Source of the DNA: Nitrosopumilus sp.
GTDB lineage: Archaea; Thermoproteota; Nitrososphaeria; Nitrososphaerales; Nitrosopumilaceae
Length of the DNA stretch: 64,000 nt
NCBI GenBank assembly: GCA_965223425.1
Contig: OZ245003.1
Span: 1,600,001 to 1,664,000, forward strand
Direction: 5' to 3'
The position numbers were made by a program, and so were the translations under genes. This document shows positions 2,646 to 53,533 of the stretch, piece after piece (position 1 is the stretch's first letter; each line of letters opens with the position of its first letter). The notes below the pieces were generated by a model. That model was not told the origin of the DNA and made no database searches. It was given only the letters and a program-made list of their open reading frames with translations.

Positions 2646-2679
2646 ACTTGCAAGACAATATTATCGGCGTGTAAAAAAT

Positions 2680-3876: not shown

Positions 3877-3879
3877 TAG

Positions 3880-27197: not shown

Positions 27198-27686
27198 ATG
27201 ATAAAGCAAATACAGTCAGTAAACGCCCGATGGCCGCACATCCCACCGGGTGCTTTATCCATTTCTACCAACCTATCGGCGATGTCCTATATGAATGAAA
27301 TTCTTCTGGTGTCCGCAGGATTATTGCTGATGGGCGGGATTGCAATATTCGTCTTTGGGTCTGAGATGCAGTCAACTGCGATGATGCTCACTGACATCAA
27401 CAGGATAAACCGCGAGATAATGGAGGAGAAGATAGACTTTACATCAGTGGATGAGAATGGGCCGGAAGTGATATTTACTCTCACCAACTTTGGCAGCAAG
27501 GATACCGAAATAATTGCAATACTGTCCGAAGAGGGCACAAAGTGCGAGTGTACCACCAATAATTCTGATTCAAAAGATAAGATGATTCTAATCAACAAGC
27601 AGACAGAGTTTACATGCAAGAAGGAGACAGGCAAAAAATATTACGCCGTAACTGATACAAAGCAGGTCCTGGTGCTGGAACTTTGA
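27198..27686 (+). CDS. Pilin/archaellin-like protein
   Basis: Hydrophobic helix (EILLVSAGLLLMGGIAIFVF) followed by EKIDF...FTLTNFGSKDTEI, as in archaeal pilin-like folds. Alternative start at 27282. Confidence 0.45.
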   Translation: MIKQIQSVNARWPHIPPGALSISTNLSAMSYMNEILLVSAGLLLMGGIAIFVFGSEMQSTAMMLTDINRINREIMEEKIDFTSVDENGPEVIFTLTNFGSKDTEIIAILSEEGTKCECTTNNSDSKDKMILINKQTEFTCKKETGKKYYAVTDTKQVLVLEL

Positions 27687-27715
27687 GACAGGATTCGCAT
27701 TCAGACGGCCCAATA

Positions 27716-29245
27716 ATGCGGCGTAAAAGTATGTTTTTAATTCTTATAATCCTGTCTGCGGGAATTCTTGCCTGTCTGGTGACATCGCAAGAAAGCATGG
27801 CAGATACGTGGCAGTTTGGCCAGCTGAGGCACGGTGAGACGTTTGAATACTATATCTGTGACAATGTGACACTTGATCGTAGAACTGGGCTGTCGTCAAA
27901 ATGCTATGAGATGGAGATGTGGGTGGTTGATCGGGTTCCGACTGATACCGGTCCGGTGTGGATATTACACGTGACAATATTGGGTGGTGAGGAGAAGCAT
28001 GATCTGATACTACTAAATGAAAGATTTCAGCCACAGTCGATTTACCACCAGTATGTGGAGGACTCGCTTGCATCTACCATATTCTGGGGCCCAAAATATT
28101 TCACGGAATTTGAGACGGTTATCGGAAACAGCATAGCCACCGTACCGTCAAAGTATAATGACGTGGATATCATCGTGTCTGATTTTGTTGACTTTCAGGG
28201 AGACAGGGAATATTTGTTGCAGTGGAGCAACGACTATGAGAATCAGATGTGGATACGCAACACATCGCCACTGCCGTCAAAGGCGACAGTCTACTCTGAG
28301 ATCCATTCCGGGTTCAAGTCCCACATTGCATACGAGTACGAGCTAAAATCACATTCCTCAAATTTCGACACAACGCTTGGAGCAGACGAGGGTTTTCCTG
28401 ACGGCTTTTTTCCAGGTAATGTGGGCGGTGACATTTCGATATTAGATGATCCATTTGATGAGATGTCAGAAAATGACATCACAAACGATATTGATGTTTT
28501 CATTCCAGAGGAAATCACTCCATCTGACATTCAGGAGAATGGCACAGGAGCCTCAATTCCTGACTTTGTGCCAGAGGAAATCACTCCATCTGATCAGGCA
28601 AACGATACGGACATTACAATTCCTGACTTTGTGCCAGAGGAAATCACTCCATCTGACATTCAGGAGAATGGCACAGGAGCCTCAATTCCTGACTTTGTGC
28701 CAGAGGAAATCACTCCATCTGATCAGGCAAACGATACGGACATTACAATTCCTGACTTTGTGCCAGAGGAAATCACTCCATCTGATCAGGCAAACGATAC
28801 GGACATTACAATTCCTGACTTTGTGCCAGAGGAAATCACTCCATCTGATCAGGCAAACGATACGGACATTACAATTCCTGACTTTGTGCCAGAAGAGATC
28901 ACTCCATCTGACATTCAGGAGAATGGCACAGGTAATGATATTACAAACGATACGTCAAATGACTTGTTAATTGTTAATGATGATGTGCCAGGTGATATAG
29001 TTACAGCTGATAACGCGACTATAGGTATTTCGCAAGATGAAATTGATGAGATAATTACGAATCTCATTGACGGAATTTCAGAAGATCAAGATGAGATTCC
29101 AGCTGATATCCCAGCCGATACGCCAGATGAGATTCCGGAACCGCAGGCCACAACGGAGGATGTGCAATCAGACAACAGTGATATGCAACAAGATGATTTC
29201 CTTGCAGGCATTGTGTCGTTTTTTAAGTCGCTGTTTGGCCTTTAA
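27716..29245 (+). CDS. Secreted surface protein with an acidic tandem-repeat stalk
   Basis: Signal peptide, seven PEEITPSD repeats and a C-terminal amphipathic FLAGIVSFFKSLFGL. Confidence 0.75.
   Translation: MRRKSMFLILIILSAGILACLVTSQESMADTWQFGQLRHGETFEYYICDNVTLDRRTGLSSKCYEMEMWVVDRVPTDTGPVWILHVTILGGEEKHDLILLNERFQPQSIYHQYVEDSLASTIFWGPKYFTEFETVIGNSIATVPSKYNDVDIIVSDFVDFQGDREYLLQWSNDYENQMWIRNTSPLPSKATVYSEIHSGFKSHIAYEYELKSHSSNFDTTLGADEGFPDGFFPGNVGGDISILDDPFDEMSENDITNDIDVFIPEEITPSDIQENGTGASIPDFVPEEITPSDQANDTDITIPDFVPEEITPSDIQENGTGASIPDFVPEEITPSDQANDTDITIPDFVPEEITPSDQANDTDITIPDFVPEEITPSDQANDTDITIPDFVPEEITPSDIQENGTGNDITNDTSNDLLIVNDDVPGDIVTADNATIGISQDEIDEIITNLIDGISEDQDEIPADIPADTPDEIPEPQATTEDVQSDNSDMQQDDFLAGIVSFFKSLFGL
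28490..28933 (+). repeat. Intragenic tandem repeats, 66-bp (A) and 63-bp (B) units in the order A-B-A-B-B-B-A
   Basis: A = IPDFVPEEITPSDIQENGTGAS and B = IPDFVPEEITPSDQANDTDIT; nearly identical at DNA level. Confidence 0.92.
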
Positions 29246-29702
29246 CTCAATTTCAAGCGCGGATGCGTCGATCCAAATTTCCGTAACGCAAGTTACGGCC
29301 CCATTGAAGCAAACTAAAAACATTACCATGTTACAGTTCTGTACGTTTCAAACAATGACATCATGGAGGGTGTTGCAACACCTGGCGAATTTGCGCGAGT
29401 GATAAGCAAGGAAATCCTCACACCGAGACGGACATGAATAAATCTTTGAAAACTCAAAGTTTTCGGAATAGATCCAAGCGCGGACACGTCGGGAGCCGGA
29501 CCCGAATCTCCCAGTTCTTACGTAGGTGCATGGCCGTCATGCTACGTGCCCACAAAGATTTATTAAATAATCCATGCCAACAATCCCAGTTCTTACGTAG
29601 GTTAGGCCAGCGTGCTAATCTCTTTTTCTGTTTTGGAATGAAGGTTTGTGTTATCGTAAATGCAGGTTTCATAAAGTTGATGACCCGCGCTTGTATGAAT
29701 AG

Positions 29703-30745: not shown

Positions 30746-31771
30746 ATGGCAACCAACACACATACGTTTGAGGCAATACGTGGAATGCAGGCAGGCAGTA
30801 ATTTCTACATTGCCATGTGTACGCTAAAGTCAGTGGCCAAGCTGTTCACATATACTGATGCTGACATCCCGGCAGAACAGAGAGCGCAGCGAACCCTTCG
30901 AAAGTCCAGAATCCCAAAGATACGCGATTACATCCTGCAAAATTCAGATGACTATATTTTTTCATCAATTACAGTATCAGTTGACGGCAGGATAGCGTTC
31001 ACTCCGATTTCGGCAACCAGGAAGGATATCGGAATGATTTCATTCTCCCAGGATGCCTCTATCTTAATCAATGACGGCCAGCACCGCGCAGCTGCGATAA
31101 AAAATGCAATCGAGGAGAACCCACAGCTTGGCCAAGACAAAATCTCAGTTGTCTTCTTTGAGGACCTAAAGCTCGAAAAAAGCCAGCAGATGTTTGCGGA
31201 TCTTAACAAACATGCAGTAAAGCCGACAAGGTCGCTTGGAATATTATATGACAGGCGCAATGACTTTGCAATTTTCCTGGTCGAAATGATCAAAAGTATC
31301 AAGGTGTTCCATAACAGAATAGAGATGGAAAAGACCAGCATATCCAACCGCTCTACAAAGTTCTTTACGCTAAACGGCCTGGAGCTTGCGACCAAAAATC
31401 TCCTTGGAAAGGACAAAAACCTAAAAGAGGGCGAGAAAAAGACCGTAATTGATTTCTGGAACACCGTTGCAAAAAATATTCCAGAATGGTCGCTGTTGAT
31501 GGACAGGAAAGTGACTCCCACGGAACTGAGAAAGGACTGCGTTCACGCAAATACAAACATGCTGGAGGCCATCGCAATTGCGGGCAACAGGCTGATAAAA
31601 AACCATCCAAATGAATGGAAACAAAAACTGTCAGGCCTGCAAAAGATAGACTGGAGCAGGACAAACCGGGAATGGGACGACAAGATAATAATTAGAGGCA
31701 AGATGACAAAGACAAGGGCTGGAATGAACAGCGCCGCAAAAATTCTGATAAGGTACTGCGGGGGTAAATAA
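30746..31771 (+). CDS. dndB: DNA sulfur modification protein DndB (DGQHR domain)
   Basis: AIRGMQAG, RAQRTL, INDGQHR and QQMFADLN. First gene of the dnd cluster. Confidence 0.9.
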   Translation: MATNTHTFEAIRGMQAGSNFYIAMCTLKSVAKLFTYTDADIPAEQRAQRTLRKSRIPKIRDYILQNSDDYIFSSITVSVDGRIAFTPISATRKDIGMISFSQDASILINDGQHRAAAIKNAIEENPQLGQDKISVVFFEDLKLEKSQQMFADLNKHAVKPTRSLGILYDRRNDFAIFLVEMIKSIKVFHNRIEMEKTSISNRSTKFFTLNGLELATKNLLGKDKNLKEGEKKTVIDFWNTVAKNIPEWSLLMDRKVTPTELRKDCVHANTNMLEAIAIAGNRLIKNHPNEWKQKLSGLQKIDWSRTNREWDDKIIIRGKMTKTRAGMNSAAKILIRYCGGK

Positions 31772-33186
31772 TGGAATCAGTTTTCAAGTCAAGAACCCTC
31801 GGTGATATACATGCGGAAATTCAGCAAGTCTATCTTGGGGACAAAAGGCCGTGGATTCTCGGATTTAGCGGAGGCAAGGACTCTACCTGCATGATACAGA
31901 TAGTGTGGACTGCACTGTCAAAACTGCCAAAATCCAAGCTCACAAAAAAGATCTATGTGATATCTTCTGACACCCTGGTCGAATCGCCAAAAATAGTGGA
32001 GACAGTTACCGGCTCCCTTGAGAGCATGGAGAAGGCAGCAAAGGAATCGTCAATACCACTTGAGACCAACCTCGTCAGGCCCGTACTCCATGACACCTTC
32101 TGGGTCTGCATGATAGGCAAGGGATATCCCGCACCCTCAAACACGTTCCGGTGGTGTACTGACAGGCTGAAGATAAAGAGCGCAAACAGGTTCATAGAAG
32201 AGAGGGTGTCTGAACACGGCGAGGTTGTGATGGTCCTTGGCAGCAGAAAGGCAGAAAGCAGCACCAGGGCACATGTGATGGACAACCACAAAATCAGTGG
32301 GAGCCACCTCTCACACCACAACATGCTTCCACAGGCGTTCATCTATGCCCCCCTGCAGGACTTTACCACAGAAGACGTATGGAACTATCTCTTGCAAAAT
32401 TCCGCCAACCAGTGGGGCGGAAACAACCGCGATCTTTTATCCATGTATCAGGATGCAAATGCCGCCGAATGCCCGCTAGTGATTGACACCAGCACGTCCT
32501 CATGCGGCAACAGCAGGTTCGGATGCTGGGTGTGTACGGTGGTCGAGCGCGACAAATCCATGGAGAGCATGATTGATAACGGCCAGGACTGGATGGAGCC
32601 GTTGCTTGAGCTCAGGCAGATGCTAAAGGACACGCAGGTCCCAGAAAGGAAGAACGAGTTTCGCGAGCTCAAACACAGGAACGGCCGCGTCATATTTTGG
32701 AACGACAGGATAGCCTACGGCCCGTACAAGTTTGAATTCTGCAAGAGGATATTTGAAAATCTTATACGTGCCCAGATGGCAGTACGCAAAAACGGCCCTG
32801 ATCCGGACATCGCATTAATACATGATGACGAGATTCATGAGATCCAGCGCATATGGAGAACAGAGCACGGGGACTGGAAGAATTCCGCATACGGCACATA
32901 CAAGGGCATTACAGGGGATGAAATTGCCCCGATTGAGGAGGACCTGGGGGCCTTTGGACTGGTGGAGCAGTCAGAACTAGAGAAATCCTGCAAGGAGCAC
33001 GACATCCCATACGAGCTCATGGCAAGATCCCTCCAGGTGGAGTTTGACATGCAGTCAATTACAAGCAGGCAAAAGGTGCACACGGCGCTCTCAAAAATAC
33101 TGACAGAGGAGTGGCGCCAGGACATGGATGAGGCAGTAAGGGACGTGGCAGAAAGAAAGAGCAAGATAAAGGAGATTTATGAGTAG
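31771..33186 (+). CDS. dndC: DNA phosphorothioation sulfurtransferase DndC
   Basis: PWILGFSGGKDS, SDTLVE, FRWCTDRLKI, ECPLVID and CGNSRFGCWVCT. Confidence 0.96.
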   Translation: MESVFKSRTLGDIHAEIQQVYLGDKRPWILGFSGGKDSTCMIQIVWTALSKLPKSKLTKKIYVISSDTLVESPKIVETVTGSLESMEKAAKESSIPLETNLVRPVLHDTFWVCMIGKGYPAPSNTFRWCTDRLKIKSANRFIEERVSEHGEVVMVLGSRKAESSTRAHVMDNHKISGSHLSHHNMLPQAFIYAPLQDFTTEDVWNYLLQNSANQWGGNNRDLLSMYQDANAAECPLVIDTSTSSCGNSRFGCWVCTVVERDKSMESMIDNGQDWMEPLLELRQMLKDTQVPERKNEFRELKHRNGRVIFWNDRIAYGPYKFEFCKRIFENLIRAQMAVRKNGPDPDIALIHDDEIHEIQRIWRTEHGDWKNSAYGTYKGITGDEIAPIEEDLGAFGLVEQSELEKSCKEHDIPYELMARSLQVEFDMQSITSRQKVHTALSKILTEEWRQDMDEAVRDVAERKSKIKEIYE

Positions 33187-33188
33187 AT

Positions 33189-35207
33189 ATGCTGCTTGAA
33201 AGACTGGTCCTTGAGAACTATGGGGTCTATGCAGGCAGATCAGAGTTTGACCTGTCATGTACGGAGGAAAAGCCGATTGTCCTCATAGGCGGACTTAATG
33301 GCGCGGGGAAGACTACCGTCTTTGAGTCGCTGATGATCGCACTGTACGGCAGGACATACCTTGGAAGGCGCGCAACAAAAAAGGAATACATGAAGTTTGT
33401 CGGAGACAGAATTCACAGACACGGGGATGTACATGCGGACTTCGCCTCAGTCGAGGTGGCCTTTCGGTTCTACCACAACGGATGCGACGACAGGTACGAG
33501 GTGGAACGAAGCTGGACAAGGGAGGGCGCCTCTGTTTCCGAATCGCTCCTGGTACGAAAGAACGGCAGGTCGCTAAACGATGTGGATGAGTCCCAGTGGC
33601 AGTCGTTTATAGAGGGACTCCTGCCTCTCGGAATAGCAAAGCTGTTCTTTTTTGACGGTGAGAAGATAGTGCGGATTACAGAATGGGGGAACAGCGGCAA
33701 TGATGAGATAAGGTTCTCACTTGACATTTTGCTTGGGGCAGAACTGATCAACAGGCTTCATTCAGACCTGGAGCTTTACATGGTAAGAAGATCCGGCAGG
33801 GAAGGCGGCGGCAATGACTGCGCAATACAGGAAAAATACGACAATATGAGACGGGAAAAAGAGGAGCTGGTCTCAGAGATTGTGTCCCTGTCAGCAGAGA
33901 ACGAGAGAAAAAACGCAGAGATTCAGCAGGTCACATCGAAAATTAACATGAAGGAGTCCGGGATAGCCGGAGTCGGCGGCGGATATGCGAACATACGTGA
34001 AGGCCTCCTCACACAAAAGGCGACACTCCAGGAAAAGATCAGACATCAGGGGGGGACAATCCAGGAGGAGCTGGGAGGGGATGCGCCGCTATACATGATG
34101 TACTCGATGATGAGAGGCATCAAGGATCAGATAGAGTGCGACATGTCAATCATTAATCAAAAGGCGACTGCACGCATGATACGTGAAAAGTCAGAAAAGC
34201 TCAAGGAGGAGATCTCTTCTGATGAAAAATTATGGCCCGACAATACAGATTCAGAACAAATCTCAGGGAAGATATTGGAAAAACTGCACAATATGTTTGC
34301 AGAGCCAAAAGATGATGTCTTTTTTGAGATTGGCACATCTGATGCCTCGTGGTTACGGCAGAAGATATCCGGAATTGGCAATGAATCCAAATCACTCCAG
34401 GTGAAAATAAGCGAATATGGAATGACTGTAAAGGACCTTGAAAAGATTGAATCGGAGCTGCTAAAAGTTCCAAGGGACGACGAGATAGGTCCCAAAATAT
34501 CCGAGATTAACGCGCTGCATCAGGAGATTGGAATATTAAAGTCCGAGGTGGCACATATTGACCGGCAGATATCATCAAAGCGCGCATACCAGAGGATACT
34601 TCAAGGCAAGCTAAAGGTACTGGTGGACTCTATCCACAAGGACAAGATGACAGATGCCGGAATGCAGCTTGCCTCCGGAATGCAGAAGGCCCTGGACACA
34701 TACTCGACTAACCTAAGGGAGCAAAAGATACGTGAGCTCGAATCCAACCTGCTTGACGCAGTGGGGCTGCTGCTCCACAAAAAACACATACACAAAATAA
34801 GGATAGACGGCCGGACATTTGAGATAAACGCGTACGGGAAGGAGGAGGATGACGGCCGCGACGTGGAAAACCCGGTCGAACTAAAGTCGATGGGTGAGAG
34901 GCAGATGATTGGAACGGCGCTGCTTTGGGCCATTGCACGAACAAGCGGAAGGTCACTTCCGTTTGTCATTGATACGCCGCTTGGACGGCTTGACGGCATG
35001 CACCTCTCAAACCTGATGAACAGGTTCTATCCGTTTGCCTCACACCAGATTGTTTTGCTGTCGACAGACAGGGAGATTGGCGCCAAGGAATACGCGGAGC
35101 TGGAGCAGTACACGTCAAGATCATACAGGATAACATGCGATGAAGGCATATCAACTAGCACGGTGACGGAGGGATACTTTGTGGGGGAGACAGTTGCACA
35201 GGCTTGA
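33189..35207 (+). CDS. dndD: DNA sulfur modification SMC-like ATPase DndD
   Basis: GLNGAGKTT, LFFFDGEKI, coiled coil, SMGERQ, IDTPLGRLD and HQIVLLSTDREI. Confidence 0.95.
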   Translation: MLLERLVLENYGVYAGRSEFDLSCTEEKPIVLIGGLNGAGKTTVFESLMIALYGRTYLGRRATKKEYMKFVGDRIHRHGDVHADFASVEVAFRFYHNGCDDRYEVERSWTREGASVSESLLVRKNGRSLNDVDESQWQSFIEGLLPLGIAKLFFFDGEKIVRITEWGNSGNDEIRFSLDILLGAELINRLHSDLELYMVRRSGREGGGNDCAIQEKYDNMRREKEELVSEIVSLSAENERKNAEIQQVTSKINMKESGIAGVGGGYANIREGLLTQKATLQEKIRHQGGTIQEELGGDAPLYMMYSMMRGIKDQIECDMSIINQKATARMIREKSEKLKEEISSDEKLWPDNTDSEQISGKILEKLHNMFAEPKDDVFFEIGTSDASWLRQKISGIGNESKSLQVKISEYGMTVKDLEKIESELLKVPRDDEIGPKISEINALHQEIGILKSEVAHIDRQISSKRAYQRILQGKLKVLVDSIHKDKMTDAGMQLASGMQKALDTYSTNLREQKIRELESNLLDAVGLLLHKKHIHKIRIDGRTFEINAYGKEEDDGRDVENPVELKSMGERQMIGTALLWAIARTSGRSLPFVIDTPLGRLDGMHLSNLMNRFYPFASHQIVLLSTDREIGAKEYAELEQYTSRSYRITCDEGISTSTVTEGYFVGETVAQA

Positions 35208-35565
35208 GAAGGTAAGACTGTCAATAAGGTCGCAAAACCATCTGGGACAGCTCAAACACAAGACAGGCCTGTCAATCAACGTTCTTGCCAGATTCGGAAT
35301 CTGCCTCTCCTTGAAGGATTCCAGTCTGCCAAATCCGGACATGTATGACGAGAAGGGAATGGAGCTGCTTCCACACGTACTGTTTGGGAAAAACGAGCTG
35401 ATATATGCCGCAATGTTTCAGAAGAGGCTTTATGACGACGGGCTTGACTATCAGAAATATGCCGGCCGCATGATACGGGCGCACATAAACCGCGGTGCCG
35501 GGATTCTGTTTCCAAGAATTGACAGACTGGAAGGCTTTGGAGTCCTGCTGGAGAAAAACGCATAG
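35194..35565 (+). CDS. dndE: DNA sulfur modification protein DndE
   Basis: LKHKTGLSINVLARFGICLSL...RAHINRG. TTG 35194 follows GGGGAGA (track start 35179). Confidence 0.9.
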   Translation: MHRLEKVRLSIRSQNHLGQLKHKTGLSINVLARFGICLSLKDSSLPNPDMYDEKGMELLPHVLFGKNELIYAAMFQKRLYDDGLDYQKYAGRMIRAHINRGAGILFPRIDRLEGFGVLLEKNA

Positions 35566-35568
35566 GAT

Positions 35569-36744
35569 ATGACCGGGACAGGTTTTCCCATTTATCTTGA
35601 CAATCATGCCACCACAAAGCTTGACCCGCGAGTATTGGAGGAGATGATGCCGTACCTTACCGAAAAATTCGGCAACGCATCCAGCATGGATCACGCGTAC
35701 GGACATGACGCATCAGTTGCCGTGGAATCCGCACGTGAAGGGATTGCCGGCATAATCAATGCAAGGCACGATGAGATAGTCTTTACGTCCGGGGCCACAG
35801 AGTCAGACAACATTGCGCTGATTGGAACGATGGAAAGGTACGGGGACCGGGGAAATCACCTGATCACGTGCGTCACAGAACACAGGGCAGTCCTTGACAC
35901 TGCAAGGCATCTGGAGAATTTCGGCAAAAAGGTGACGTATCTTCCAGTTGATCAGTACGGTCAGGTCAGTCTTGATGACATACAAAATGCAATCACAGAC
36001 AAAACGGTAATGATATCAGTCATGATGGCAAACAACGAGATTGGGACAGTTGCCGACGTTGCCAAAATCGGAAGGCTTGCCCATGACAGGGGAGTAATAT
36101 TTCACACAGATGCCGCACAGACTGTCGGACACATCCCAGTGGATGTGCAGCAGATGAACATTGATCTGATGTCATTTTCTGCACACAAGATGTACGGGCC
36201 CAAGGGCGTCGGTGCGCTGTATATTCGCGGAATAAGCCCCAGGATAAAACCTGCCCCCATTATTCATGGCGGCGGACAGGAGAGAAACATACGTTCAGGG
36301 ACCATAAACGTCCCGGGGGTGGTAGGCTTTGGCAAGGCAGCAGAGATTGCCGCAAGGGAGATGGAGTCAGAGAACAAAAGATTCAGGAAATGGAATGACT
36401 CTATGCTGTCGGACTTTGAGAAGGTCGGGGGACTGCTCAACGGGCATCAGACAGAGAGGCTCTCACACAATCTCAACGTCTGCTTTCCAAAAACTGAGGG
36501 CAAGGCAATAATTAATTCCATATCCAAGGAAATTGCAATATCTGCCGGTTCTGCATGCACGGCACAGACTGTGGAGCCGTCCCATGTCATTCTTGCGCTG
36601 GGTTACGGCGAGGGGCGCGCACACTCGTCTGTACGGATTGGATTCGGCAGGTTCAACGAGGAGGGGGAGACGGAGTATTGCGCAAAGGCAGTATCAAAGT
36701 CAGTGGAGTCCCTCAGGGGAATTACCCTGAATAACAAAAGCTAG
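35569..36744 (+). CDS. dndA: Cysteine desulfurase DndA/IscS
   Basis: YLDNHATT, TSGATES, HTDAAQ, SAHKMYGPKG (PLP lysine) and SAGSAC (catalytic Cys). Directly follows dndE. Confidence 0.93.
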   Translation: MTGTGFPIYLDNHATTKLDPRVLEEMMPYLTEKFGNASSMDHAYGHDASVAVESAREGIAGIINARHDEIVFTSGATESDNIALIGTMERYGDRGNHLITCVTEHRAVLDTARHLENFGKKVTYLPVDQYGQVSLDDIQNAITDKTVMISVMMANNEIGTVADVAKIGRLAHDRGVIFHTDAAQTVGHIPVDVQQMNIDLMSFSAHKMYGPKGVGALYIRGISPRIKPAPIIHGGGQERNIRSGTINVPGVVGFGKAAEIAAREMESENKRFRKWNDSMLSDFEKVGGLLNGHQTERLSHNLNVCFPKTEGKAIINSISKEIAISAGSACTAQTVEPSHVILALGYGEGRAHSSVRIGFGRFNEEGETEYCAKAVSKSVESLRGITLNNKS

Positions 36745-36836
36745 CGCGTCATACTGCTGCTGATGCCGGCACATGAAACTGCACTGGGCCGGCAAAATCC
36801 AAACTGTAAATAGCATAAAGCGCACAGTATTGTATC

Positions 36837-37694
36837 ATGTGCGCATATGGAATAATCATTCATGGCGGGGCAGGCGATTCGGACACTGATGATCCGCATG
36901 CAAAGGGGACAATGCAAAAAATTATCGACTCGTCATGTAAGATGCTGAGGGATGGCTGTTCTGCCGTCGATGTTGCAGAACATGCAGTATCAGAAATGGA
37001 GAACTCTGGAAAGTTCAACGCAGGAGCAGGGTCATGTCTCACAGAAAAGGGCACAATAGAGATGGATGCAGGTATTATGAACGGGGAGACCATGCAGTGC
37101 GGTGCAGTCGCAATAATCAACGGCGTGAAAAATCCAGTAATGGTGGCAAGGCAGGTAATGTCCGAATCCGAACACTCTCTAATTGCAGGAAATGGCGCAC
37201 TTGAATTTGCGCTGGCACACGGATTCTCAAAGTTTGAGATCGTGCCGAAAAAAACACAGATGGAAAAACTGGAAAAAATACTGATGCACAAATATGGAAC
37301 AGTCGGGGCAGTGGTGATTGATGCAAAATCAAACATAGTGTCAGCAGTATCTACTGGGGGGATATGGTCCAAGACCTGCGGCAGAATAGGGGATTCGGCA
37401 ATTGCAGGCTCTGGGTTTTATGCAAACAACAGTGCGGGAGGCGCCGTGGCAACAGGCGAGGGCGATGTAATAATAAAGTCATGTCTTACAAAAAACGTAT
37501 GCGACATGATGTATTCGGGGATATCCGTCCAGGAGGCCGCAGACATTGCAATCCATGATCTTGGGCGGCTTGGAGGAAAGGGCGGCGTCATTGCAGTGGG
37601 CAGAGATGGGAAAATTGGCGCCTCGTTTAACACAAAGACGATGCTTTTTGCACATGTGAGCGATGATGGCGCAGAAGAACCACCATCATTCTGA
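36837..37694 (+). CDS. Isoaspartyl peptidase/L-asparaginase (Ntn hydrolase)
   Basis: IIHGGAG, FNAGAGS, EMDAGIM, GTVGAV (nucleophile Thr), STGG, GRIGDS and TGEG. Confidence 0.92.
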   Translation: MCAYGIIIHGGAGDSDTDDPHAKGTMQKIIDSSCKMLRDGCSAVDVAEHAVSEMENSGKFNAGAGSCLTEKGTIEMDAGIMNGETMQCGAVAIINGVKNPVMVARQVMSESEHSLIAGNGALEFALAHGFSKFEIVPKKTQMEKLEKILMHKYGTVGAVVIDAKSNIVSAVSTGGIWSKTCGRIGDSAIAGSGFYANNSAGGAVATGEGDVIIKSCLTKNVCDMMYSGISVQEAADIAIHDLGRLGGKGGVIAVGRDGKIGASFNTKTMLFAHVSDDGAEEPPSF

Positions 37695-37743
37695 AGGGCC
37701 GACTATTAGAAATTTATTTAAAGTCAAGCATCAAACATACTCC

Positions 37744-38568
37744 ATGTTAGAAATTCCTTCCAAATCGATTGATATTCCGCTTGAAGAGATAACGCTGGGC
37801 AAAAGTCAGGCAAGACAGAGAGACACAAAGGTTGACGAAGATGATGATTTGGTTCACAGCATCCGTAAAAATGGACTGATCACCCCGATAATTGTAAAAA
37901 AAATTGAAGATAGAAAATATGAGCTGCTGGTGGGACAGCGCAGATTCCGGGCTCACGAAATTCTAAAAAAATCCACAATTAGGGCCCAGGTTATGGAAAG
38001 GGACATCGATGAGTTTGAAGCCAAAAAGATTTCCCTGATTGAAAATGCGGCACGCAAAGACATGAAGCATGCAGATTATATGGACACCATTCAAATGTTT
38101 ATGGAAAAGTATAACGGAAGAGTGGCAACTGTTGCAGAAGAACTTGGACTGTCAACTGGTACTGTGAGCAAATATTTTTCAGTTAGCAATCTGCCAGAAA
38201 ATGTCAAGAGTAAGGTAAGAGAGAAAAAGATCAGTCCTGCAAACGCTATAAAGGCCCTCAATGCGCTGGGTGGCGAAGTTTCAGAAGTGAATGAAGATGA
38301 CCTGCTGGAAACTGCCGAAGAAATGCAAAAGCTATCTCCACAGTCCAGGAAAAAATTCGTAGAGATAAAGAAACATGAGGAGGGAATTTCCACAAGCAAA
38401 GCAGTGGAACAGGCAAAAAAACGAGTCGAATTACATCATGTTAGTTTAGATGCAACAGACGACCAGCTAATCAGAATAGAAAAATTCAAGGAGAAGGAAA
38501 GCATTGAAGAAACAGGTGACGCAGTGAGTGAATTAGTGGATCTTGGTTTGGATGCATCTGATGTCTGA
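37744..38568 (+). CDS. ParB/RepB/Spo0J-family protein
   Basis: LVHSIRKNGLITPIIV, YELLVGQRRFRA, SLIENAARKDM and an HTH (VAEELGLSTGTVSKY). TATA-like TTTATTTAAA at about 37713 supports ATG 37744. Confidence 0.88.
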   Translation: MLEIPSKSIDIPLEEITLGKSQARQRDTKVDEDDDLVHSIRKNGLITPIIVKKIEDRKYELLVGQRRFRAHEILKKSTIRAQVMERDIDEFEAKKISLIENAARKDMKHADYMDTIQMFMEKYNGRVATVAEELGLSTGTVSKYFSVSNLPENVKSKVREKKISPANAIKALNALGGEVSEVNEDDLLETAEEMQKLSPQSRKKFVEIKKHEEGISTSKAVEQAKKRVELHHVSLDATDDQLIRIEKFKEKESIEETGDAVSELVDLGLDASDV

Positions 38569-39305
38569 TGTCACTGTTAAAAGATCCAAAACGTCTTGCC
38601 GAATTGTTATGCAGCATTAAGGTGTCACATACTGACAGACCCCTGACTCCCATGGAGACTGCCGAGAGAATAAAACTGCTGGAAAAGGAGGGTTATGACA
38701 AAAACACACTCTCAAAGAGACTGTCACTTTCCACAGATATGATTGATTTGTTTTTACAACTCTTGAGGCTCCCTCAGAAAATCCAGGACATCGTAAATTG
38801 GGGGGCATCAAAAAAAGATACCGGTGAAATCTCCTTTACGTCGGCAGCCGAACTAGTCAAGCTGGACAACCCTGATGACATGTTAAAACTGGCAGGAGCC
38901 ATCACAGGCATGCCCAGACCTGTAAACAAAAACGAGGTAAAGGGGATAGTCAGCCTCAAAAAGAACAACCCAGGAAAACCCATTGAGGAGTGCATAACAG
39001 AGGTGCTCAACGTCACGCGGCCCGTAATAATCAATCACTTTCTGTTCATCAGTGGCATAAAACCTGCCACCGTCCAGTCACTCAGAAAGGCATCAGAGAA
39101 AAACAACACGGACTTGAACACGTTTTCATCAGAGATAATCTCCAAAAAGCTTCCAAACGATTCTGTAAAGGACGTGAATATGCATGATGACTATGTCCGC
39201 ATCGCCTTTACAGAAGAGGGAAGGAACCATTTTCACAAATATGCCGATTCTGAAGGCATATCGATCAAGGACGTGGTTAACCATATCTTTGAAGAAGTGA
39301 TGTGA
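38568..39305 (+). CDS. ParB/KorB-like HTH protein lacking the N-terminal CTP-binding domain
   Basis: LTPMETAERI...LSKRLSLSTDMI...LLRLPQKIQ...ISFTSAAEL. TGATG coupling with the upstream ParB gene. Confidence 0.65.
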   Translation: MSLLKDPKRLAELLCSIKVSHTDRPLTPMETAERIKLLEKEGYDKNTLSKRLSLSTDMIDLFLQLLRLPQKIQDIVNWGASKKDTGEISFTSAAELVKLDNPDDMLKLAGAITGMPRPVNKNEVKGIVSLKKNNPGKPIEECITEVLNVTRPVIINHFLFISGIKPATVQSLRKASEKNNTDLNTFSSEIISKKLPNDSVKDVNMHDDYVRIAFTEEGRNHFHKYADSEGISIKDVVNHIFEEVM

Positions 39306-40346
39306 ATGAATGAAGACGAGCTTTTCTCCAAGGTAAAAATTACAAATGACGGTGCGATATGTTTGGGTGACTCTGTTGTCTGTGACGGGTTTGAGCGCGG
39401 CTATCACGCTGCCGTGTTTACACACATTCATTCAGACCACATATCTTCCAGCTTTGAGACATGCATGCACCAGTATGACGTGTATTCCTCAAAAATTACG
39501 GGGGACCTGCTTGAAGCCATGACTGAGGACACGTATCTCAAAAGAACGCAGTTTCATAGAATGGACTATGAAGAGGCCGAAATGATCAAGTGCAATGACA
39601 GGGGCGATTTTCTGACACTGATACAGTCAAGGCATATGCTGGGTTCAAGTCAGGTTTTTCTGGAAACACATGACAGATTAAAAATTATGTACTCTGGTGA
39701 CATTTCACCAGAAGACAGGCCGCGCAAATGTGACATTCTTGTCATTGATTCGACGCACGGCAATCCGCTTTTTGACAAAGTTATCAGCAGTGAAAGCCTG
39801 GAGCGAAGGCTCAATGATGTGGTAATCGAGGCAATAGACAAGAAAAGGCCAGTATGCATTCATGCGCACAGGGGAAAACTTCAGCACATCATGCACATGC
39901 TTTCAAAGGATGGTAACATTCCAAAAACCGTTCCATTTCTGTCCGAACACGTCGAAAACAAGATTGCATCCGTTTATGACAAAAACGAATGTAAAATTTC
40001 CAGGAAACTGTATGATATCAGTTCCTATGAGGGAAGCAAGATTATCGGCGATACGTACCCGTGGATAGAGTTCAGCTCGACCCCGCGCGAAAGCGAGAGG
40101 GAGAAGCGGGGCCAGATGCTGACTATCAGCATGATGGGAAGGTATGGTCAGGACACAATATCTCACAATGGCGCAAAGTGGTGGATTGCCTCAAACGAGC
40201 ATGCTGAATTTTCTGAGCTATTAGAGTATGTAAGGAATGCCGACCCGCACATTGTAGTCACTGACAACATGCGAACCAGAAACGGGGTTACACTGGCAAA
40301 GGAAATAAACAGCAAGTTGGGAATACCTGCAAGACCGATGCCGTAA
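39306..40346 (+). CDS. MBL-fold/beta-CASP nuclease
   Basis: THIHSDH, HMLGS, YSGD, IDSTHG and C-terminal NEHA. Confidence 0.8.
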   Translation: MNEDELFSKVKITNDGAICLGDSVVCDGFERGYHAAVFTHIHSDHISSSFETCMHQYDVYSSKITGDLLEAMTEDTYLKRTQFHRMDYEEAEMIKCNDRGDFLTLIQSRHMLGSSQVFLETHDRLKIMYSGDISPEDRPRKCDILVIDSTHGNPLFDKVISSESLERRLNDVVIEAIDKKRPVCIHAHRGKLQHIMHMLSKDGNIPKTVPFLSEHVENKIASVYDKNECKISRKLYDISSYEGSKIIGDTYPWIEFSSTPRESEREKRGQMLTISMMGRYGQDTISHNGAKWWIASNEHAEFSELLEYVRNADPHIVVTDNMRTRNGVTLAKEINSKLGIPARPMP

Positions 40347-40350
40347 CAAA

Positions 40351-41718
40351 ATGACCCTGACAAAATCAAATTTTAAAAACCATCTGAAAATATTCTTGAA
40401 GAGTGCCCTAATTATATGCAGAAAGGAGATTTCAGAAAATCCGGACATCTATGCAAAGGAGGTAAGAAGGCCGGCATTTAGTGGCGATACATTCACGGAT
40501 GTCAAAATTGAAGAAGGGATGGATTTTGAGAAGCTGCTATACACACTGCATGACAAAACAAGGAACCATCCAAACTTTGGCTCTTTGCAGGTGACGGTAA
40601 TGGATGTTTTGGAAGGCAGGGCCCGGCTGCTGGAAAAGAAAACAAAGTGTATGTTGGACGTTGATCTCAAACAGACAGACGATAGTCCGCTTTTTGATTT
40701 TGTGAGGATATATCTGGAGCGGTACGGATTGGACTTTGAGACGGAATCTTTTAAAAAGACATCACAAAATTTTCACCAGTACTTGGATGGGGACTATTTT
40801 TCATACCACTATCTTACTCCATTATACAACCTGCATGGCGGTTTTGAAAAAATTCACCTGTCTGAGGATCTGTGGATTAGAAGAATAACCGAGGATGAAT
40901 TCTCCAAAATTCTGAATATAAAAAATATGCCGGAAAAAGAAATTCCGACATACCAGAGAAGATTGAAATTTGTCATAGTTTGCAGGATGATTCGCAAGAA
41001 GGGGTCTGATTTCCCACAGACTGCCTTGGAAAATTTTGAAAACGTGGCAAACGCGCTAAAGGTCTTCGGGGACGACAACTCTGAATTTGGAAGCATATAC
41101 TGGATCTCATCGGAGAACTGGGATGTTGAGGGCCTGAAGTTAATAGAACAGGGCCACGAAAGAATTATTTCGTCGTCTGTCTATTCACTGGATGAGAGGG
41201 AGGCAGTAAGGTTTTCCAGATTTTATGAGGACCTGAGCTGCAAACTTTACAATTCAAAGAATTCCGAATTTTTAAAATCGGCCATCCGCAGATATGGAAT
41301 GGGTTTTCACCACAGGAGTCACGTTGACAAAATAGTTGACTGTGTGATTTCGTTGGAATCCCTCATTGTGGAGGGAGCGGGGGAATCAACGCTTAAACTG
41401 GCCCACAGAATGTCCTCACTGCTTGGAGAGTCTGATGTGGAGAGACTGGAAATTTGGAAGTTTATGAAGGAGGCATACAAGTTTAGAAGTGGAATACTGC
41501 ATGAATCAAAAAGCAGAAGGTTCAAAATCAATTCACATGCGTTGGATTTGAAGGTAGTGTCTGACAAGCTGGGGCGTTATACCAGGCAGTCCATACAAAG
41601 GATGATTCTGCTGCTAAACAGATACGAAACCCAGAAAGAGATTATCGATGAACTGGACAAGTCCATGTATGACAGGGGAAACTTGAAAAAACTACAGCAG
41701 TGTTGGAAGAATCTCTGA
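40351..41718 (+). CDS. HEPN-domain protein (ApeA/Cthe_2314-like)
   Basis: C-terminal ISLESL...KLAHRMSSLL...AYKFRSGILH (RxxxxH). Confidence 0.75.
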   Translation: MTLTKSNFKNHLKIFLKSALIICRKEISENPDIYAKEVRRPAFSGDTFTDVKIEEGMDFEKLLYTLHDKTRNHPNFGSLQVTVMDVLEGRARLLEKKTKCMLDVDLKQTDDSPLFDFVRIYLERYGLDFETESFKKTSQNFHQYLDGDYFSYHYLTPLYNLHGGFEKIHLSEDLWIRRITEDEFSKILNIKNMPEKEIPTYQRRLKFVIVCRMIRKKGSDFPQTALENFENVANALKVFGDDNSEFGSIYWISSENWDVEGLKLIEQGHERIISSSVYSLDEREAVRFSRFYEDLSCKLYNSKNSEFLKSAIRRYGMGFHHRSHVDKIVDCVISLESLIVEGAGESTLKLAHRMSSLLGESDVERLEIWKFMKEAYKFRSGILHESKSRRFKINSHALDLKVVSDKLGRYTRQSIQRMILLLNRYETQKEIIDELDKSMYDRGNLKKLQQCWKNL

Positions 41719-41847: not shown

Positions 41848-42081
41848 ATGTCAGAATGTGAATTTTCTGTAATAAAATATGTGCCAGACATAGTACGATT
41901 TGAACCGGTGAATATAGGAATCATCCTACTTGACAAGCAAAATAAAAAAATACACGTCAAGTACGTCACAAATTTTAACGAGTTATTTACGAGGTTGGGA
42001 GTCGAAAAAATTCACGGACTGGAAAAATCCTTTGGGAATTTCTCCCATTTCTACAGGAATTTATCCAAATCCGTGATCTGA
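41848..42081 (+). pseudogene. DUF3037-like protein, N-terminal fragment
   Basis: FSVIKYVPDIVRFEPVNIGIIL. The ORF ends after 77 aa, running into the 3' end of the convergent RM gene. Confidence 0.6.
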
Positions 42082-43964
42082 AAGCTGTCAAATGGTTTTG
42101 TGGTGGCATTTTTACTACCTCCACTGATGGAAGGTTCCCTGCACAATCTTTCCCTCAAATCATCAATATCTAATTCAAAATTTAGAATTTCTAGTATCTC
42201 CCGATCAATCTTTTTCCTTACATCATCTTTATACATGTCCTTGATAGGCAACAACTCGCTTTTTTTATACTCATCAAATAACCCGTCAAACTTAGTTATC
42301 TGCCCATTAGTTAATTTTGAAAAGTCCAACACGAACATTTTTTCCATTGATGTTTTGGAAGATATCCCACGTCCAAACTGCTGCTTTCCACTGTTGAGCC
42401 AGAAACAAAATATTCCTAATGTGGAATTTCCCCATATAGCAAACGCCTTTTCGTGCTCTTTTGGCATGTAATAGTTTGGAAGCGAAGCGCCTGTTCCAAG
42501 CGTCTCTTTGTCACTATAGAGAACAAGAAGGCATTGGCTGGTATATCTGGCCAGTATGTTGATGTGCAAATGGGATGCCGTTTTTGATTTTTCTGTCACA
42601 TGAACATTGGCGGCGTTTGGTTTAGGTATTGCCATACAATCCGGTTTTACAATTATGCTTTTTTGATCTTTACTGTTATTGTTGGAAAGTCCGCAATAAA
42701 TTGCCGTACCATCCGGAGGGGAAATGGTAAATGGAGCCCTGTTATCATTGGGCTTGTTGTCTGCCACATCTCTTGATAATGGGCCAAACTTGCCTCCAAG
42801 TACAGTCATGGGAATCCTGCATCCCTTCACGAACAATTCATACCCAATCTGCAACAAATATGCGTCATAGACGCCTACAAACCACCAGTCAAAATTCAGA
42901 CTGCAGTCCATGATGCCTCCTATTTTTTTCTTGCCAATGAGAATTGGAATTGAACCTTTTTTGTTATTCTCCAATGCAATTGCACTGGCATTCCTAACAA
43001 TCTGTTTTGCGGTTTCTATTGCACTAAGGATTGATTTTGGCCTTTCCTTAATGGTTACAAATTTTCCCCGTTTGTCAGAGCCGAGTTTATGCAGTTCTTC
43101 TTTTAGTTTCGTTATCTTAAAATTATTTTCTGTTATTTCCTTCTGTAACTCACTTTCACTTGTTGGAATCTTTTTCCTCCTTTTGGGTTTTTTTAACCTG
43201 TTTTTACAGTCTGAAACATTCTTTTCCAGTGTACTGATTTTTTTCAACTTTTCTTCCAATATTTTGATTTTTTCAGTAGATTCTTTTCTTGCTACAACAA
43301 GCAGTTCGTTCATAGATGTATCAAATGAAAACGCACCGTCGGTTGTCGATGGCCCAGCTATGCTGACAACAGTTATGGAATCATATCTCAAACGCAACAA
43401 TTCTCTGCATTTTTCCCATGCAGCCCCATTGGAAATAGTTGACGGCAAAACCATTCCCATTGTCCCACCATGTTTCAATTTTTTGTCGGCCACTGCTATG
43501 AAATTTGTAGCATATCCTGCATTTCCGTCGGCACATGTACCATCAAACCATTTCTTCTCAAGATTTGACATTTTTTTCTGAGTTTCCTTATCCATGTCAA
43601 AAGGCGCAAACATCGCGCGGCCTTCCTTTCCACCTTCCCTAGTGTTACTAGTAAATGGCGGATTCATTATTACATAATCAACCGATTCATCCCTTACCCC
43701 GTGGTCTGCATACACTTCTTCTCTGTTGCCTATGATGAATGTTCCCTTGGTTTCAAGAGTGGCTTCGGGGAGAATCAGATCCATGGAGCCAAGATGATAA
43801 AATCCATCCTTTTTACCAAACATGGCAGTTCCAATATTTGTTGATTTTATTGTTTTTTTGGGAAATATGCCAGCTAGTGATGATACTGTCAAATGAACAG
43901 CACTTGGAAGGACATCAAACCCAATTATGGATTTGGCAAGCATTTCGTCGTGGATTTTTCGCAT
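42051..43964 (-). CDS. Type IIG-like RM enzyme copy 2, C-terminal part (N6-MTase + TRD)
   Basis: MRKIHD...IIGFDVLPSAVHLT, IMNPPF and WGNSTLG; clear paralogue of 23326..25245. Track ORF is 42051..43994. Confidence 0.8.
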   Translation of the reverse strand: MRKIHDEMLAKSIIGFDVLPSAVHLTVSSLAGIFPKKTIKSTNIGTAMFGKKDGFYHLGSMDLILPEATLETKGTFIIGNREEVYADHGVRDESVDYVIMNPPFTSNTREGGKEGRAMFAPFDMDKETQKKMSNLEKKWFDGTCADGNAGYATNFIAVADKKLKHGGTMGMVLPSTISNGAAWEKCRELLRLRYDSITVVSIAGPSTTDGAFSFDTSMNELLVVARKESTEKIKILEEKLKKISTLEKNVSDCKNRLKKPKRRKKIPTSESELQKEITENNFKITKLKEELHKLGSDKRGKFVTIKERPKSILSAIETAKQIVRNASAIALENNKKGSIPILIGKKKIGGIMDCSLNFDWWFVGVYDAYLLQIGYELFVKGCRIPMTVLGGKFGPLSRDVADNKPNDNRAPFTISPPDGTAIYCGLSNNNSKDQKSIIVKPDCMAIPKPNAANVHVTEKSKTASHLHINILARYTSQCLLVLYSDKETLGTGASLPNYYMPKEHEKAFAIWGNSTLGIFCFWLNSGKQQFGRGISSKTSMEKMFVLDFSKLTNGQITKFDGLFDEYKKSELLPIKDMYKDDVRKKIDREILEILNFELDIDDLRERLCREPSISGGSKNATTKPFDSFQITDLDKFL

Positions 43965-45069
43965 CTCCCCCCCCCCCCGCCGCCGCGGCTTCATAATACA
44001 TGATCAGGTGTTTGTAGAAGACAGTGAGCAGCGTTCCTGTCCCGCATGCAAAATCGGCCACACGTATATCCCTCATAGTTTCTTCTGATTCAAATAATTT
44101 CGAACTTGGCTGTGGAACAACCAAACCGGCCAGCAGGTGTGCAGATTCCGGAAGCGTGTAAAATGAGGCCAGTGTCTTTCTGTCCGTGATCATCCTCTGT
44201 ATGAGGGAACCGTACATGTCAGTTGATCTAACAAGACCCATCGAGGTTATTTGATTTGAAGTGTTTACCAATTTTGCGACTATTTCCTGAGCAGTAGTAT
44301 CGTCAAGATAGTTCAGGACGGTCTTTGCTATGTCGAATATAGGAAAATAGTTGATCTCCAATATTTTGTCCCACACCCTGCTCAATTCGGCCAGATTTAT
44401 CCATCCCGCAGAAGTGATTTCCCGTATAGTTTCTATCCCATGTTCTCCAGCTATGTTGTTATGAAATACAAAGGCGTTGGACAGGATCAGGCCGGCCATC
44501 TTCCATGTCTGCTCATTTTCCTTCTGAAACAACAGCTTTGCAATATTTTTCTTGGTTGTACTTCCAGATTGTTCTATCACGTCTGAGATAAATTCTATCG
44601 AATCACTCATGTCTCTGACACATTTTTGAACGACGGATTCCCGTACAGATGTTATCTGAGCCGCTATTGCAATATCATGTAGATTTCCAGTCAACCAGTC
44701 CGATTCAGGAAATCTATTCGGGTTATAGACTGCATATTTTAGACTGTTTGTTGTTTTGAGTTCTTTTATAATGTCCTTTTTAATCCTGAAATCTTTTGGT
44801 ATTTGTACTGCTATGACTGTTGACACTTTTTGACCGTTCTTGTATTCTTGTTGAAGTTTGTCTTCTGCATCCCTGTCTGGGTTTGCAGGCTCAATCTCAT
44901 TTTCTATTATTACGTTTGTCAGGCCGGTTTCAGTAATCAGGATGTCCGGTCTCTTGTTATTGTTTTTGAATACTTTGAGAGGTTGTGGTTCAGATTTCCA
45001 ATTTCTTCTCATCTTATCCAAAAGCTCGGACATTGTATGGGTTATGGTATCTTCATAGTGAACTGCCAT
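43915..45069 (-). CDS. Type IIG-like RM enzyme copy 2, N-terminal part, frameshifted at a G12 tract
   Basis: RPDILI...IIENE, ASFYT and ADFACGTGTLL; paralogue of 22232..23365. Confidence 0.8.
   Translation of the reverse strand: MAVHYEDTITHTMSELLDKMRRNWKSEPQPLKVFKNNNKRPDILITETGLTNVIIENEIEPANPDRDAEDKLQQEYKNGQKVSTVIAVQIPKDFRIKKDIIKELKTTNSLKYAVYNPNRFPESDWLTGNLHDIAIAAQITSVRESVVQKCVRDMSDSIEFISDVIEQSGSTTKKNIAKLLFQKENEQTWKMAGLILSNAFVFHNNIAGEHGIETIREITSAGWINLAELSRVWDKILEINYFPIFDIAKTVLNYLDDTTAQEIVAKLVNTSNQITSMGLVRSTDMYGSLIQRMITDRKTLASFYTLPESAHLLAGLVVPQPSSKLFESEETMRDIRVADFACGTGTLLTVFYKHLIMYYEAAAAGGGGDAKNPRRNACQIHNWV
43967..43978 (-). repeat. Poly-G tract (G12 on the minus strand) at the frameshift
   Basis: C12 on the plus strand. 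G11 would fuse 45069..42051 into one ORF. Confidence 0.9.
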
Positions 45070-51580: not shown

Positions 51581-51715
51581 TAGAGTCACTGCGGGTTCTA
51601 TTGAGGCGTCATTATCAAGATATGTATCGGCGATGGCAGCAAAGCGGAAGAATATGATCCACGAGATCATGCTAAAGGTTGCCACGTACAACATGGTGAC
51701 AGCAAGGAGAGTGTG
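51581..51715 (+). pseudogene. IS5-like transposase C-terminal remnant
   Basis: Reads ...YVSAMAAKRKNMIHEIMLKVATYNM. The 29-bp stretch 51581-51609 is repeated at 52926-52954. Confidence 0.4.
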
Positions 51716-53466: not shown

Positions 53467-53533
53467 TGTTGTGAATGCTTATGACTGTTCAATAAATGAT
53501 CTGGTTTATAGACCCATCTGTCAAAGAAAATTT

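Follow-up and report, generated by a model that had tools for sequence, protein, structure and literature searches.

The dnd Cluster and the Adjacent Four-Gene Module

The window, that is, the whole stretch of DNA analyzed here, comprises 64,000 nt of the Nitrosopumilus sp. assembly GCA_965223425.1 (contig OZ245003.1, positions 1,600,001-1,664,000, forward strand) and lies on the chromosome, contig C1 of a 2.64-Mb archaeal genome with a GC content of 41%. Our subject is a dndBCDEA cluster, whose products are expected to place phosphorothioate (PT) marks on DNA, and four genes downstream of it that encode two ParB-like proteins (ParB1 and ParB2), a beta-CASP nuclease and a HEPN-domain protein, called the module below. 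The proteins of the window were compared with the PADLOC v2.0.0 models, Pfam and NCBIfam, and 49 of its open reading frames (ORFs) were scanned with PADLOC.

All five dnd genes were recognized by Pfam and PADLOC in one cluster on the plus strand (30746-36744). It begins with dndB for the ParB/DGQHR-superfamily Dnd regulator (30746-31771; PF14072 at 7.9e-119, PADLOC DndB at 1.2e-131), followed by dndC for a PAPS-reductase-like PP-loop enzyme (31771-33186; PADLOC DndC at 6.1e-180, PF01507 at 7e-9), the C-terminus of which weakly resembles Sp-DndD (PF20306 at 7.7e-5, under the family cut-off). Then come dndD for the SMC/ABC-like ATPase (33189-35207; PADLOC DndD at 2.3e-159, AAA_23 at 2.9e-16), dndE (35179-35565; PF08870 at 6.4e-19, PADLOC DndE at 2.1e-31) and dndA for a class-V aminotransferase or cysteine desulfurase (35569-36744; PF00266 at 3.4e-84, PADLOC DndA at 2.2e-158). 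Between dndA and the module, on the same strand, lies an Asparaginase_2-family gene (36837-37694; PF01112 at 1.1e-75). Using tblastn, no homolog of it was detected in any related locus (0 other loci); the asparaginase is specific to the window locus and lies outside the conserved unit.

The module follows, also on the plus strand, with ParB1 at 37663-38568, ParB2 at 38568-39305, the nuclease at 39306-40346 and the HEPN protein at 40351-41718. Read directly from the sequence, the three junctions are a TGATG overlap, a 0-bp gap and a 4-bp gap. The true start of ParB1 is probably the ATG at 37744 (M28) because the homologs begin at this residue; with this start, approximately 49 nt separate the gene from the asparaginase stop, and the 32-nt overlap disappears. 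A scan for bacterial-type promoters and terminators gave counts near the shuffled expectation, the signal models being bacterial and ill-suited to archaea.

None of the four module proteins matched a PADLOC v2.0.0 model. Neither PbeA (PLD + ResIII + helicase C) nor PbeC (an AAA_23/SMC-like ATPase) was found among them with PADLOC and Pfam, and the 49 scanned ORFs contained no match of the Pbe or DndFGH type save a partial one of the SNF2 helicase at 15385-17154 to the helicase region of PbeA. An earlier note, made from the sequence of this stretch, had described dndB-C-D-E-A and an asparaginase followed by four tightly packed genes, had assigned the domains of their products (a ParB with N-domain and helix-turn-helix (HTH), a second ParB lacking the N-domain, a beta-CASP nuclease and a HEPN protein with RxxxxH) and had seen neither dndFGH nor pbeABCD in the window. 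The gene order, the junctions and, apart from the SNF2 match just named, the absence of the usual effectors were all borne out, and the domain make-up was confirmed by the profiles and structural models presented below.

Domain Composition of the Module Proteins

ParB1 consists of a ParB N-domain with CTPase-type motifs, a ParB HTH domain and a C-terminal ribbon-helix-helix (RHH)-like segment (ParB_N at 1e-17, HTH_ParB at 7e-6, TIGR00180 at 1e-28). It scored as ParB_N plus HTH_ParB and not as DUF262, and no HNH domain was detected with Pfam. The profile built from 15 orthologs matched Noc, ParB, Spo0J and KorB in the PDB (3.2e-21 to 1.7e-7); in the alignment with Noc, the GQRRfrA stretch of ParB1 falls on GERRWRA and ENlar on ENLQR. 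Residues G91, Q92, R93, R94, R51 and E87 are invariant in 15 sequences and E127 nearly so. ParB1 hence carries both N-domain motifs of a ParB clamp, GxxRxxA and ENxxR, together with the HTH. Its last approximately 50 residues are predicted to form an RHH.

ParB2 matched only HTH_ParB (9.5e-8) in Pfam and lacks the N-domain. The AlphaFold2 (AF2) model (pLDDT 90.5) has two domains. Residues 1-137 match the ParB DNA-binding domain of Spo0J (1vz0; Z 10.8, root-mean-square deviation (rmsd) 2.3, 106 residues aligned), ParB-parS (6s6h; Z 10.7) and KorB (1r71; Z 8.4), and residues 155-245 form a tandem RHH that matches AvtR (4hv0; Z 7.7) and the single-chain Arc (1u9p; Z 7.4). The C-terminal RHH domain also weakly resembles DndE (7x4e; Z 5.6 and 4.7).

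The third protein (~346 aa) is a nuclease of the metallo-beta-lactamase (MBL) fold. It was matched weakly by Lactamase_B_2 in Pfam and by the NCBIfam models for ligase-associated exonuclease (3.5e-11), Cas14 MBL-CASP and aCPSF1. The PDB profile matches were aCPSF1 (3af5, 5.4e-21), FttA, Cas14 (8yhd, 6.4e-14), SNM1A (5nzw, 4.8e-12), Apollo and Artemis, and the beta-CASP matches take in the C-terminal motif region. Residues H40, H42, D44, H45, H110 and H299 are invariant in 15 sequences, with D27, D132 and H151 nearly so, which gives the full set of MBL motifs (D, HxHxDH, H, D) plus the beta-CASP C-terminal histidine. The family of this protein numbers 168 clusters, and the organism names among the members listed are all Nitrosopumilus. 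The protein had no match in plasmid records, nor had its profile a relative in viral contigs.

No Pfam, NCBIfam or PADLOC model matched the HEPN protein (455 aa). In its AF2 model (pLDDT 88.4, pTM 0.87), helices make up the N-terminal domain, which is followed by an alpha/beta domain in the middle and by a HEPN domain at the C-terminus. The last was recognized by fold: with VIA-align, residues 297-426 matched ten HEPN structures at Z 8.7 to 6.9, among them 4nqf (Z 8.7, rmsd 3.3, 116 residues aligned), 2hsb (8.1), sacsin (7.9) and HepT (5yep, 7.1), and 18 of the 19 top rows cover residues 295-430. Foldseek of the model against the PDB gave nothing at E <= 0.001, the family profile had 0 matches to PDB sequences at E <= 10, and Pfam on the 29 members of the family alignment returned only scattered single matches at chance level. 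The R379-x4-H384 motif does not vary in either of two alignments of relatives (29 and 14 sequences); R353, E336 and R314 are invariant too. At E <= 0.001, the wider family takes in as many as 7962 representative clusters.

Judged by these alignments, the catalytic motifs of the module are intact: the nucleotide-binding motifs of ParB1, the metal-binding and catalytic histidines of the beta-CASP protein and the RxxxxH of the HEPN protein. The prediction of a complex of ParB1, ParB2 and the nuclease gave a median score of 0.25 against a mark of 0.32, without controls, and counts neither as support nor as counter-evidence.

Conservation of the Module and Its Linkage to dnd

Relatives were sought with the HEPN-family profile in 401 genomes of the same archaeal class, and matches were obtained at 32 places in 28 genomes. 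The 18 regions taken for comparison were all HEPN-matching places with E <= 2e-21 apart from the window's own, and they were annotated by tblastn with the window proteins as queries. The full ParB1-ParB2-nuclease-HEPN set, in the same order and with the same tight packing, was present in 13 of the 18 regions, in 12 genomes. All 13 complete modules adjoin dnd, one of them (in G205) being ended by the contig edge inside dndA. Most modules are co-directional with dnd; three are convergent (L060, L070, L071) and one is divergent (L073). The metagenome scan added one distinct complete dnd-adjacent locus, seen twice (L014, L015), and a 2.2-kb contig with the nuclease and HEPN genes. The module travels as one co-evolving unit and, in the examined regions, is found only directly beside dnd.

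Two complete dnd + module systems of different clades stand in tandem in one genome (L065/L066, G169:C1:1652008-1685232). Of the 401 genomes, 50 have DndC and 28 have PbeA; the 50 include 12 of the 13 genomes that bear the module. In an approximate hand tally of ~64 dndC loci, 12 had the module (13 with the cut contig), ~24 had PbeA within ~12 kb and one had both. Indirect agreement with this co-occurrence comes from a large protein collection, in which, for 14 of the 31 HEPN-family matches, the longest contig is exactly as long as that of a nuclease-family match.

The second module clade (L064, L065, L067, L068) carries two more genes between dndA and ParB1, one for an SNF2 helicase (~585 aa) and one for an approximately 260-aa protein without a Pfam family. 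In the genome of the window, an SNF2 gene whose product is 48% identical to that of this clade occurs at C1:456964-459146, with a weakly similar neighbor and near a distant DndB-like gene. The SNF2 helicase of the window itself (15385-17154) was considered as the counterpart and rejected, the identity being 26%.

The HEPN gene has decayed in 2 of the 13 loci while the other three genes are intact: it has 11 in-frame stops in L068 (G318) and is interrupted by a 312-aa transposase-like ORF in L074 (G135). Such decay beside intact partners is typical of a costly toxin.

Co-Variation within the Module and Re-Pairing with dnd

Pairwise protein identities were compared among 14 loci (91 pairs) by Spearman correlation; the pairs are not independent and the coefficients are descriptive only. 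Within the module, the coefficients were high (ParB2-nuclease 0.85, ParB1-nuclease 0.73, ParB1-ParB2 0.71, nuclease-HEPN 0.71), as they were within dnd (DndC-DndD 0.77). Between module and dnd they were close to zero (DndC-nuclease 0.14, DndD-nuclease 0.20, DndA-nuclease -0.08). A similarly low correlation, 0.107, was reported for the identities of PbeAC and DndCD (Xiong et al., PMC6459918). The dnd genes of the window are 65-72% identical to those of L064, L065, L071 and L073, whose modules share only 28-35% identity with the window module; the modules of L014, L060, L061, L062 and L074 share 50-60% with it. Since the module genes co-vary with one another, yet barely with DndC or DndD, modules have, by these comparisons, been repeatedly re-paired with different dnd lineages and yet kept adjacent. 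Such recurrent adjacency despite re-pairing is difficult to account for if the two have no functional tie.

Other dnd Clusters of the Same Genome

The genome holds three full dnd clusters, the one in the window included. The second dndB-C-D-E-A cluster (C1:874468-880562, within L013, C1:864001-884000) is followed by a canonical pbeABCD set at C1:868676-873612: PbeA (2.1e-188), a 69-aa ORF, PbeC (4e-81) and a 153-aa ORF, the small ORFs being of PbeB/PbeD size. This layout agrees with the published description of Pbe (PMC6459918). An HNH gene lies upstream of the second cluster and pbeABCD. The third cluster (C1:827466-833529, within L078, C1:815001-835000) stands beside a DISARM set, drmMII-A-B-C; there, a 255-aa gene of no assigned family overlaps the end of dndA. 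With TIGR03236 and TIGR03238 (DndF and DndH), nothing was found in the genome, the control genomes were equally blank, and DndG was not searched for.

The pbeABCD set is ~730 kb from the window, has its own dnd cluster and is not on the element of the window. With another dnd cluster thus paired with a partner of a different kind, the module fits well as the partner of the dnd cluster in the window. The earlier note had named dndFGH or pbe genes elsewhere on the element, combined with homologs free of dnd, as grounds for giving up its idea; what was found is a distant pbeABCD and dnd-linked homologs.

Genomic Setting of the Window

The window resembles an integrated archaeal mobile element. 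Its mobile-element-like genes encode TFIIB (425-1291), two D5-type primase-helicases (2617-5955), a family-B DNA polymerase (7148-9586), a DinG-like helicase (9587-11167), the above-mentioned SNF2 helicase, an SNase-domain protein (19959-21347) and a T2SSE/VirB11-type ATPase (62364-63992). Integrative-conjugative elements bearing TFIIB have been described in Thaumarchaea (PMC6563490). A tRNA-Leu gene (anticodon aag; 29480-29551, minus strand) lies approximately 1.2 kb upstream of dndB, and no attachment-site repeat of it was found downstream.

Restriction-modification genes crowd these surroundings together with the mobile-element genes. An Eco57I/MmeI-like methyltransferase encoded by two ORFs occurs twice, at 22232-25245 (plus strand) and 42051-45069 (minus strand); the copies are paralogs (70% and 59% identity). 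Both are split at the same point, the FxGxG motif closing ORF 1 and NPPF lying in ORF 2, and the ORFs overlap. A true two-part gene or a programmed frameshift seems more likely than decay because the position of the split is conserved between the copies. The other defense-type genes encode a protein with a NACHT C-terminal helical domain (27683-29245, plus strand), a C5 cytosine methyltransferase (45269-46435, minus strand), an EcoRII-C-like endonuclease (53453-54253, plus strand) and an Mrr/NA-iREase1 protein (54998-55606, plus strand). A 33-nt direct repeat (51581-51613 and 52926-52958, 97% identical, 1345 nt apart) flanks an ORF of 233 aa (52046-52747).

The Module as a Probable Effector Arm

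Considered together with the linkage and the apparently intact catalytic motifs, the four genes are probably the effector arm of a PT-based defense whose modification arm is the adjacent dndBCDEA. The earlier note had proposed an undescribed effector module in which a DNase and an abortive-infection RNase are licensed by a ParB clamp that senses DNA and possibly its PT status. Its expectation that the module would be syntenic in other genomes and occur together with dnd was confirmed by the 13 complete modules of the class, all of them syntenic and dnd-adjacent, and by the metagenome locus. The novelty that it claimed is supported as well: no PADLOC v2.0.0 model was matched and no description was found in the literature searched. 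The sensing of PT by a ParB clamp and the licensing of the nucleases keep the standing of a proposal.

Several observations weigh against the assignment. No recognizable PT-reading domain was found with Pfam in any of the four proteins. All module loci come from one archaeal class, in which related genomes are not independent samples, and a further 12 weaker HEPN-family places lie outside the set of 18 regions. In G303 (L062), PbeA is encoded at C1:1374391-1376466, ~3.5 kb beyond the module and beside the dnd cluster that the module adjoins; two effector arms may share a single dnd cluster there, or this cluster could serve Pbe rather than the module. The nearest solved relatives of the nuclease comprise RNases (aCPSF1, FttA, Cas14) as well as DNases (SNM1A, Apollo), so that DNA is a presumed substrate and the protein would fit either activity. 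The weak identity correlation between module and dnd (0.17) fits free-standing systems as well as PT sensing. Finally, HEPN relatives stand alone in 5 of the 18 regions, in unrelated surroundings. As such solitary relatives occur and the family is large, the HEPN protein can clearly work without the other three genes.

The last two points feed the alternative that the module is an independent, PT-free defense, in which a ParB-guided nuclease and an abortive-infection toxin of the HEPN type co-travel with dnd on shared islands or integrative elements. The nearly uncorrelated identities (0.14-0.20) would be expected under it, and both the window and several related loci are placed amid restriction-modification and mobile-element genes. 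The precedent of Pbe points the same way, as 320 of 553 pbeAC pairs occur without dnd and partners of dnd can therefore be free-standing (Xiong et al., PMC6459918). The neighbors in a defense island normally vary, however, whereas every one of the 13 complete modules, and the metagenome locus as a fourteenth, adjoins dnd, in three orientations and with different dnd lineages, and no complete module without dnd was present in the examined regions. The independent system, which the earlier note had offered as its own alternative, is thus disfavored, and we regard it as improbable.

It would be more surprising still if, instead of restricting, the module assisted or regulated the modification machinery or the element that carries it. 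On this view, the ParB proteins would set the place or amount of PT or repress the operon, the nuclease would process nicks made by Dnd, and the HEPN protein would serve as an addiction toxin by which the island is stabilized. DndB, itself of the ParB superfamily, has been reported to regulate PT negatively (PMC10853773), the resemblance of the ParB2 C-terminus to DndE, weak as it is, would suit such a role, and the integrative-conjugative elements of Thaumarchaea carry ParB genes (PMC6563490). Every locus, however, has its own dndB, no ParA gene stands beside the module, and a nuclease with intact catalytic motifs combined with a HEPN RNase is the signature of an effector. Moreover, by our own tally ~50 of the ~64 dndC loci in the class lack the module, which is therefore not needed for modification. 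A partition role of the ParB pair was rejected, since no ParA/MinD-type ATPase was found among the neighboring ORFs (Pfam) and nucleases are present.

Comparison with Known Systems

If the module is the effector arm, its closest counterpart in position is Pbe, which forms with DndBCDEA an antiviral PT system of archaea (Xiong et al. 2019, PMC6459918). Both are four-gene cassettes directly downstream of dnd in archaea, both have identities weakly tied to those of DndCD, and both are alternative dnd partners in the same class of genomes, the present genome included. The components differ: Pbe is made up of the PLD-helicase PbeA, the SMC-like ATPase PbeC and two small proteins, whereas the module joins two ParB proteins, one a switch and the other a DNA binder, to a beta-CASP nuclease and a HEPN RNase.

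The best functional analogy is offered by SspE, the PT-sensing effector of SspABCD, and by related DUF262-DUF1524 proteins, in which a ParB-superfamily nucleotide-hydrolyzing domain is coupled to a nuclease in PT defense. The N-terminal DUF262-fold NTPase of SspE was reported to be stimulated only by PT-DNA (PMC9646914), and DUF262 has been counted as ParB-like (PMC3710099). SspE is, in contrast, a single polypeptide with the DUF262 fold (DGQQR) and an HNH-type nickase, and it works with Ssp as the modification arm; the module has a true ParB_N/HTH protein (GQRR), separate nucleases and Dnd.

With ParB, Noc and KorB, ParB1 shares the N-domain motifs and the HTH, ParB2 shares the ParB DNA-binding domain, and a CTP-clamp action of ParB1 may be predicted from these motifs. 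The module differs from these proteins in having no ParA, in the RHH-like tail of ParB1 instead of the usual C-terminal dimerization domain, in the pairing of ParB1 with a paralog without the N-domain and with nucleases, and in its context, which is defense and not segregation. The nuclease shares HxHxDH, the further MBL/beta-CASP histidines and a length of ~346 aa with the small beta-CASP nucleases (SNM1A/Apollo, ligase-associated exonuclease, aCPSF1, Cas14) but is set apart from them in a separate family (168 clusters).

The HEPN protein is similar to ApeA in its size (~450 aa) and in its layout, in which a helical domain at the N-terminus and a middle domain precede the HEPN domain with RxxxxH at the C-terminus. 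In the nearest Pfam-annotated Atlas clusters (scores 0.86-0.89), 15-33% of the members carry HEPN_Apea and ApeA_NTD1, and one solitary relative matches PF18739 (HEPN_Apea) weakly, at 5.6e-4, which is below the cut-off. The window protein itself matched none of the ApeA models (HEPN_Apea and ApeA_NTD1 of Pfam, PADLOC), 0 of 64 sampled family members matched in PADLOC, and no ApeA structure was among the fold-search matches of the three-domain model. ApeA is a single gene, whereas the HEPN gene is the last of a four-gene operon.

The literature searches returned no paper joining ParB, beta-CASP, HEPN and defense and none joining dndBCDE and Nitrosopumilus. The main text of a survey of Dnd neighborhoods (PMC10853773) lists HKD, HNH, REase, URI, HEPN and PIN nucleases and names ParB only for DndB; MBL, metallo, CASP and Thaumarch do not occur in that main text, and its supplementary dataset could list the arrangement. 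Thaumarchaeal genome papers, in the parts consulted, mention dnd only as present or absent. As far as the searched literature goes, the module is undescribed in print.

A Tentative Working Scheme

Because of two published precedents, SspE and ApeA, a working scheme can be outlined. DndBCDEA would mark the host DNA with PT. ParB2, through its ParB HTH and tandem RHH, and ParB1, as a CTP-type switch dimerizing via its RHH-like tail, would load on DNA and scan it. PT sites might tune the nucleotide cycle of ParB1, as PT-DNA stimulates the NTPase domain of SspE, and marked DNA would be told apart from unmarked DNA. On unmarked (foreign) DNA, the ParB assembly would recruit or license the beta-CASP nuclease, and the DNA would be cut or resected. 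The HEPN protein, with a three-domain layout like that of the ligand-gated RNases of the ApeA type, would act as a second line of defense, by abortive infection, and might be turned on by the short deoxynucleotides released as the DNA is degraded. ApeA has been described as a HEPN tRNase of three domains whose activators are 5'-phosphorylated deoxydinucleotides arising in DNA degradation (bioRxiv 10.64898/2026.01.26.701840). The complete scheme, a two-tier defense in which a CTP-type ParB switch reads PT and the beta-CASP nuclease acting on unmarked DNA makes the messenger for an ApeA-like HEPN protein, is rather unlikely to hold in every part, and we put it forward as tentative.

Implications

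The PT-based defenses that were found named in print are DndFGH, PbeABCD, SspE, SspFGH and DndI, and the reading of the PT mark is well worked out for few effectors. The module, which ranks behind only Pbe as a dnd partner in the 401 genomes sampled, all from ammonia-oxidizing archaea, would widen this set if it is an effector arm. ParB-type nucleotide switches would then gain an immune role, and the module would offer a natural test of whether nuclease products gate an ApeA-like RNase. Ammonia-oxidizing archaea are important to the marine nitrogen cycle, and their defense against viruses has been little studied. If the proposal is true, these abundant marine archaea would possess a native, self-contained two-tier defense, with restriction as the first line and abortive infection as the second.

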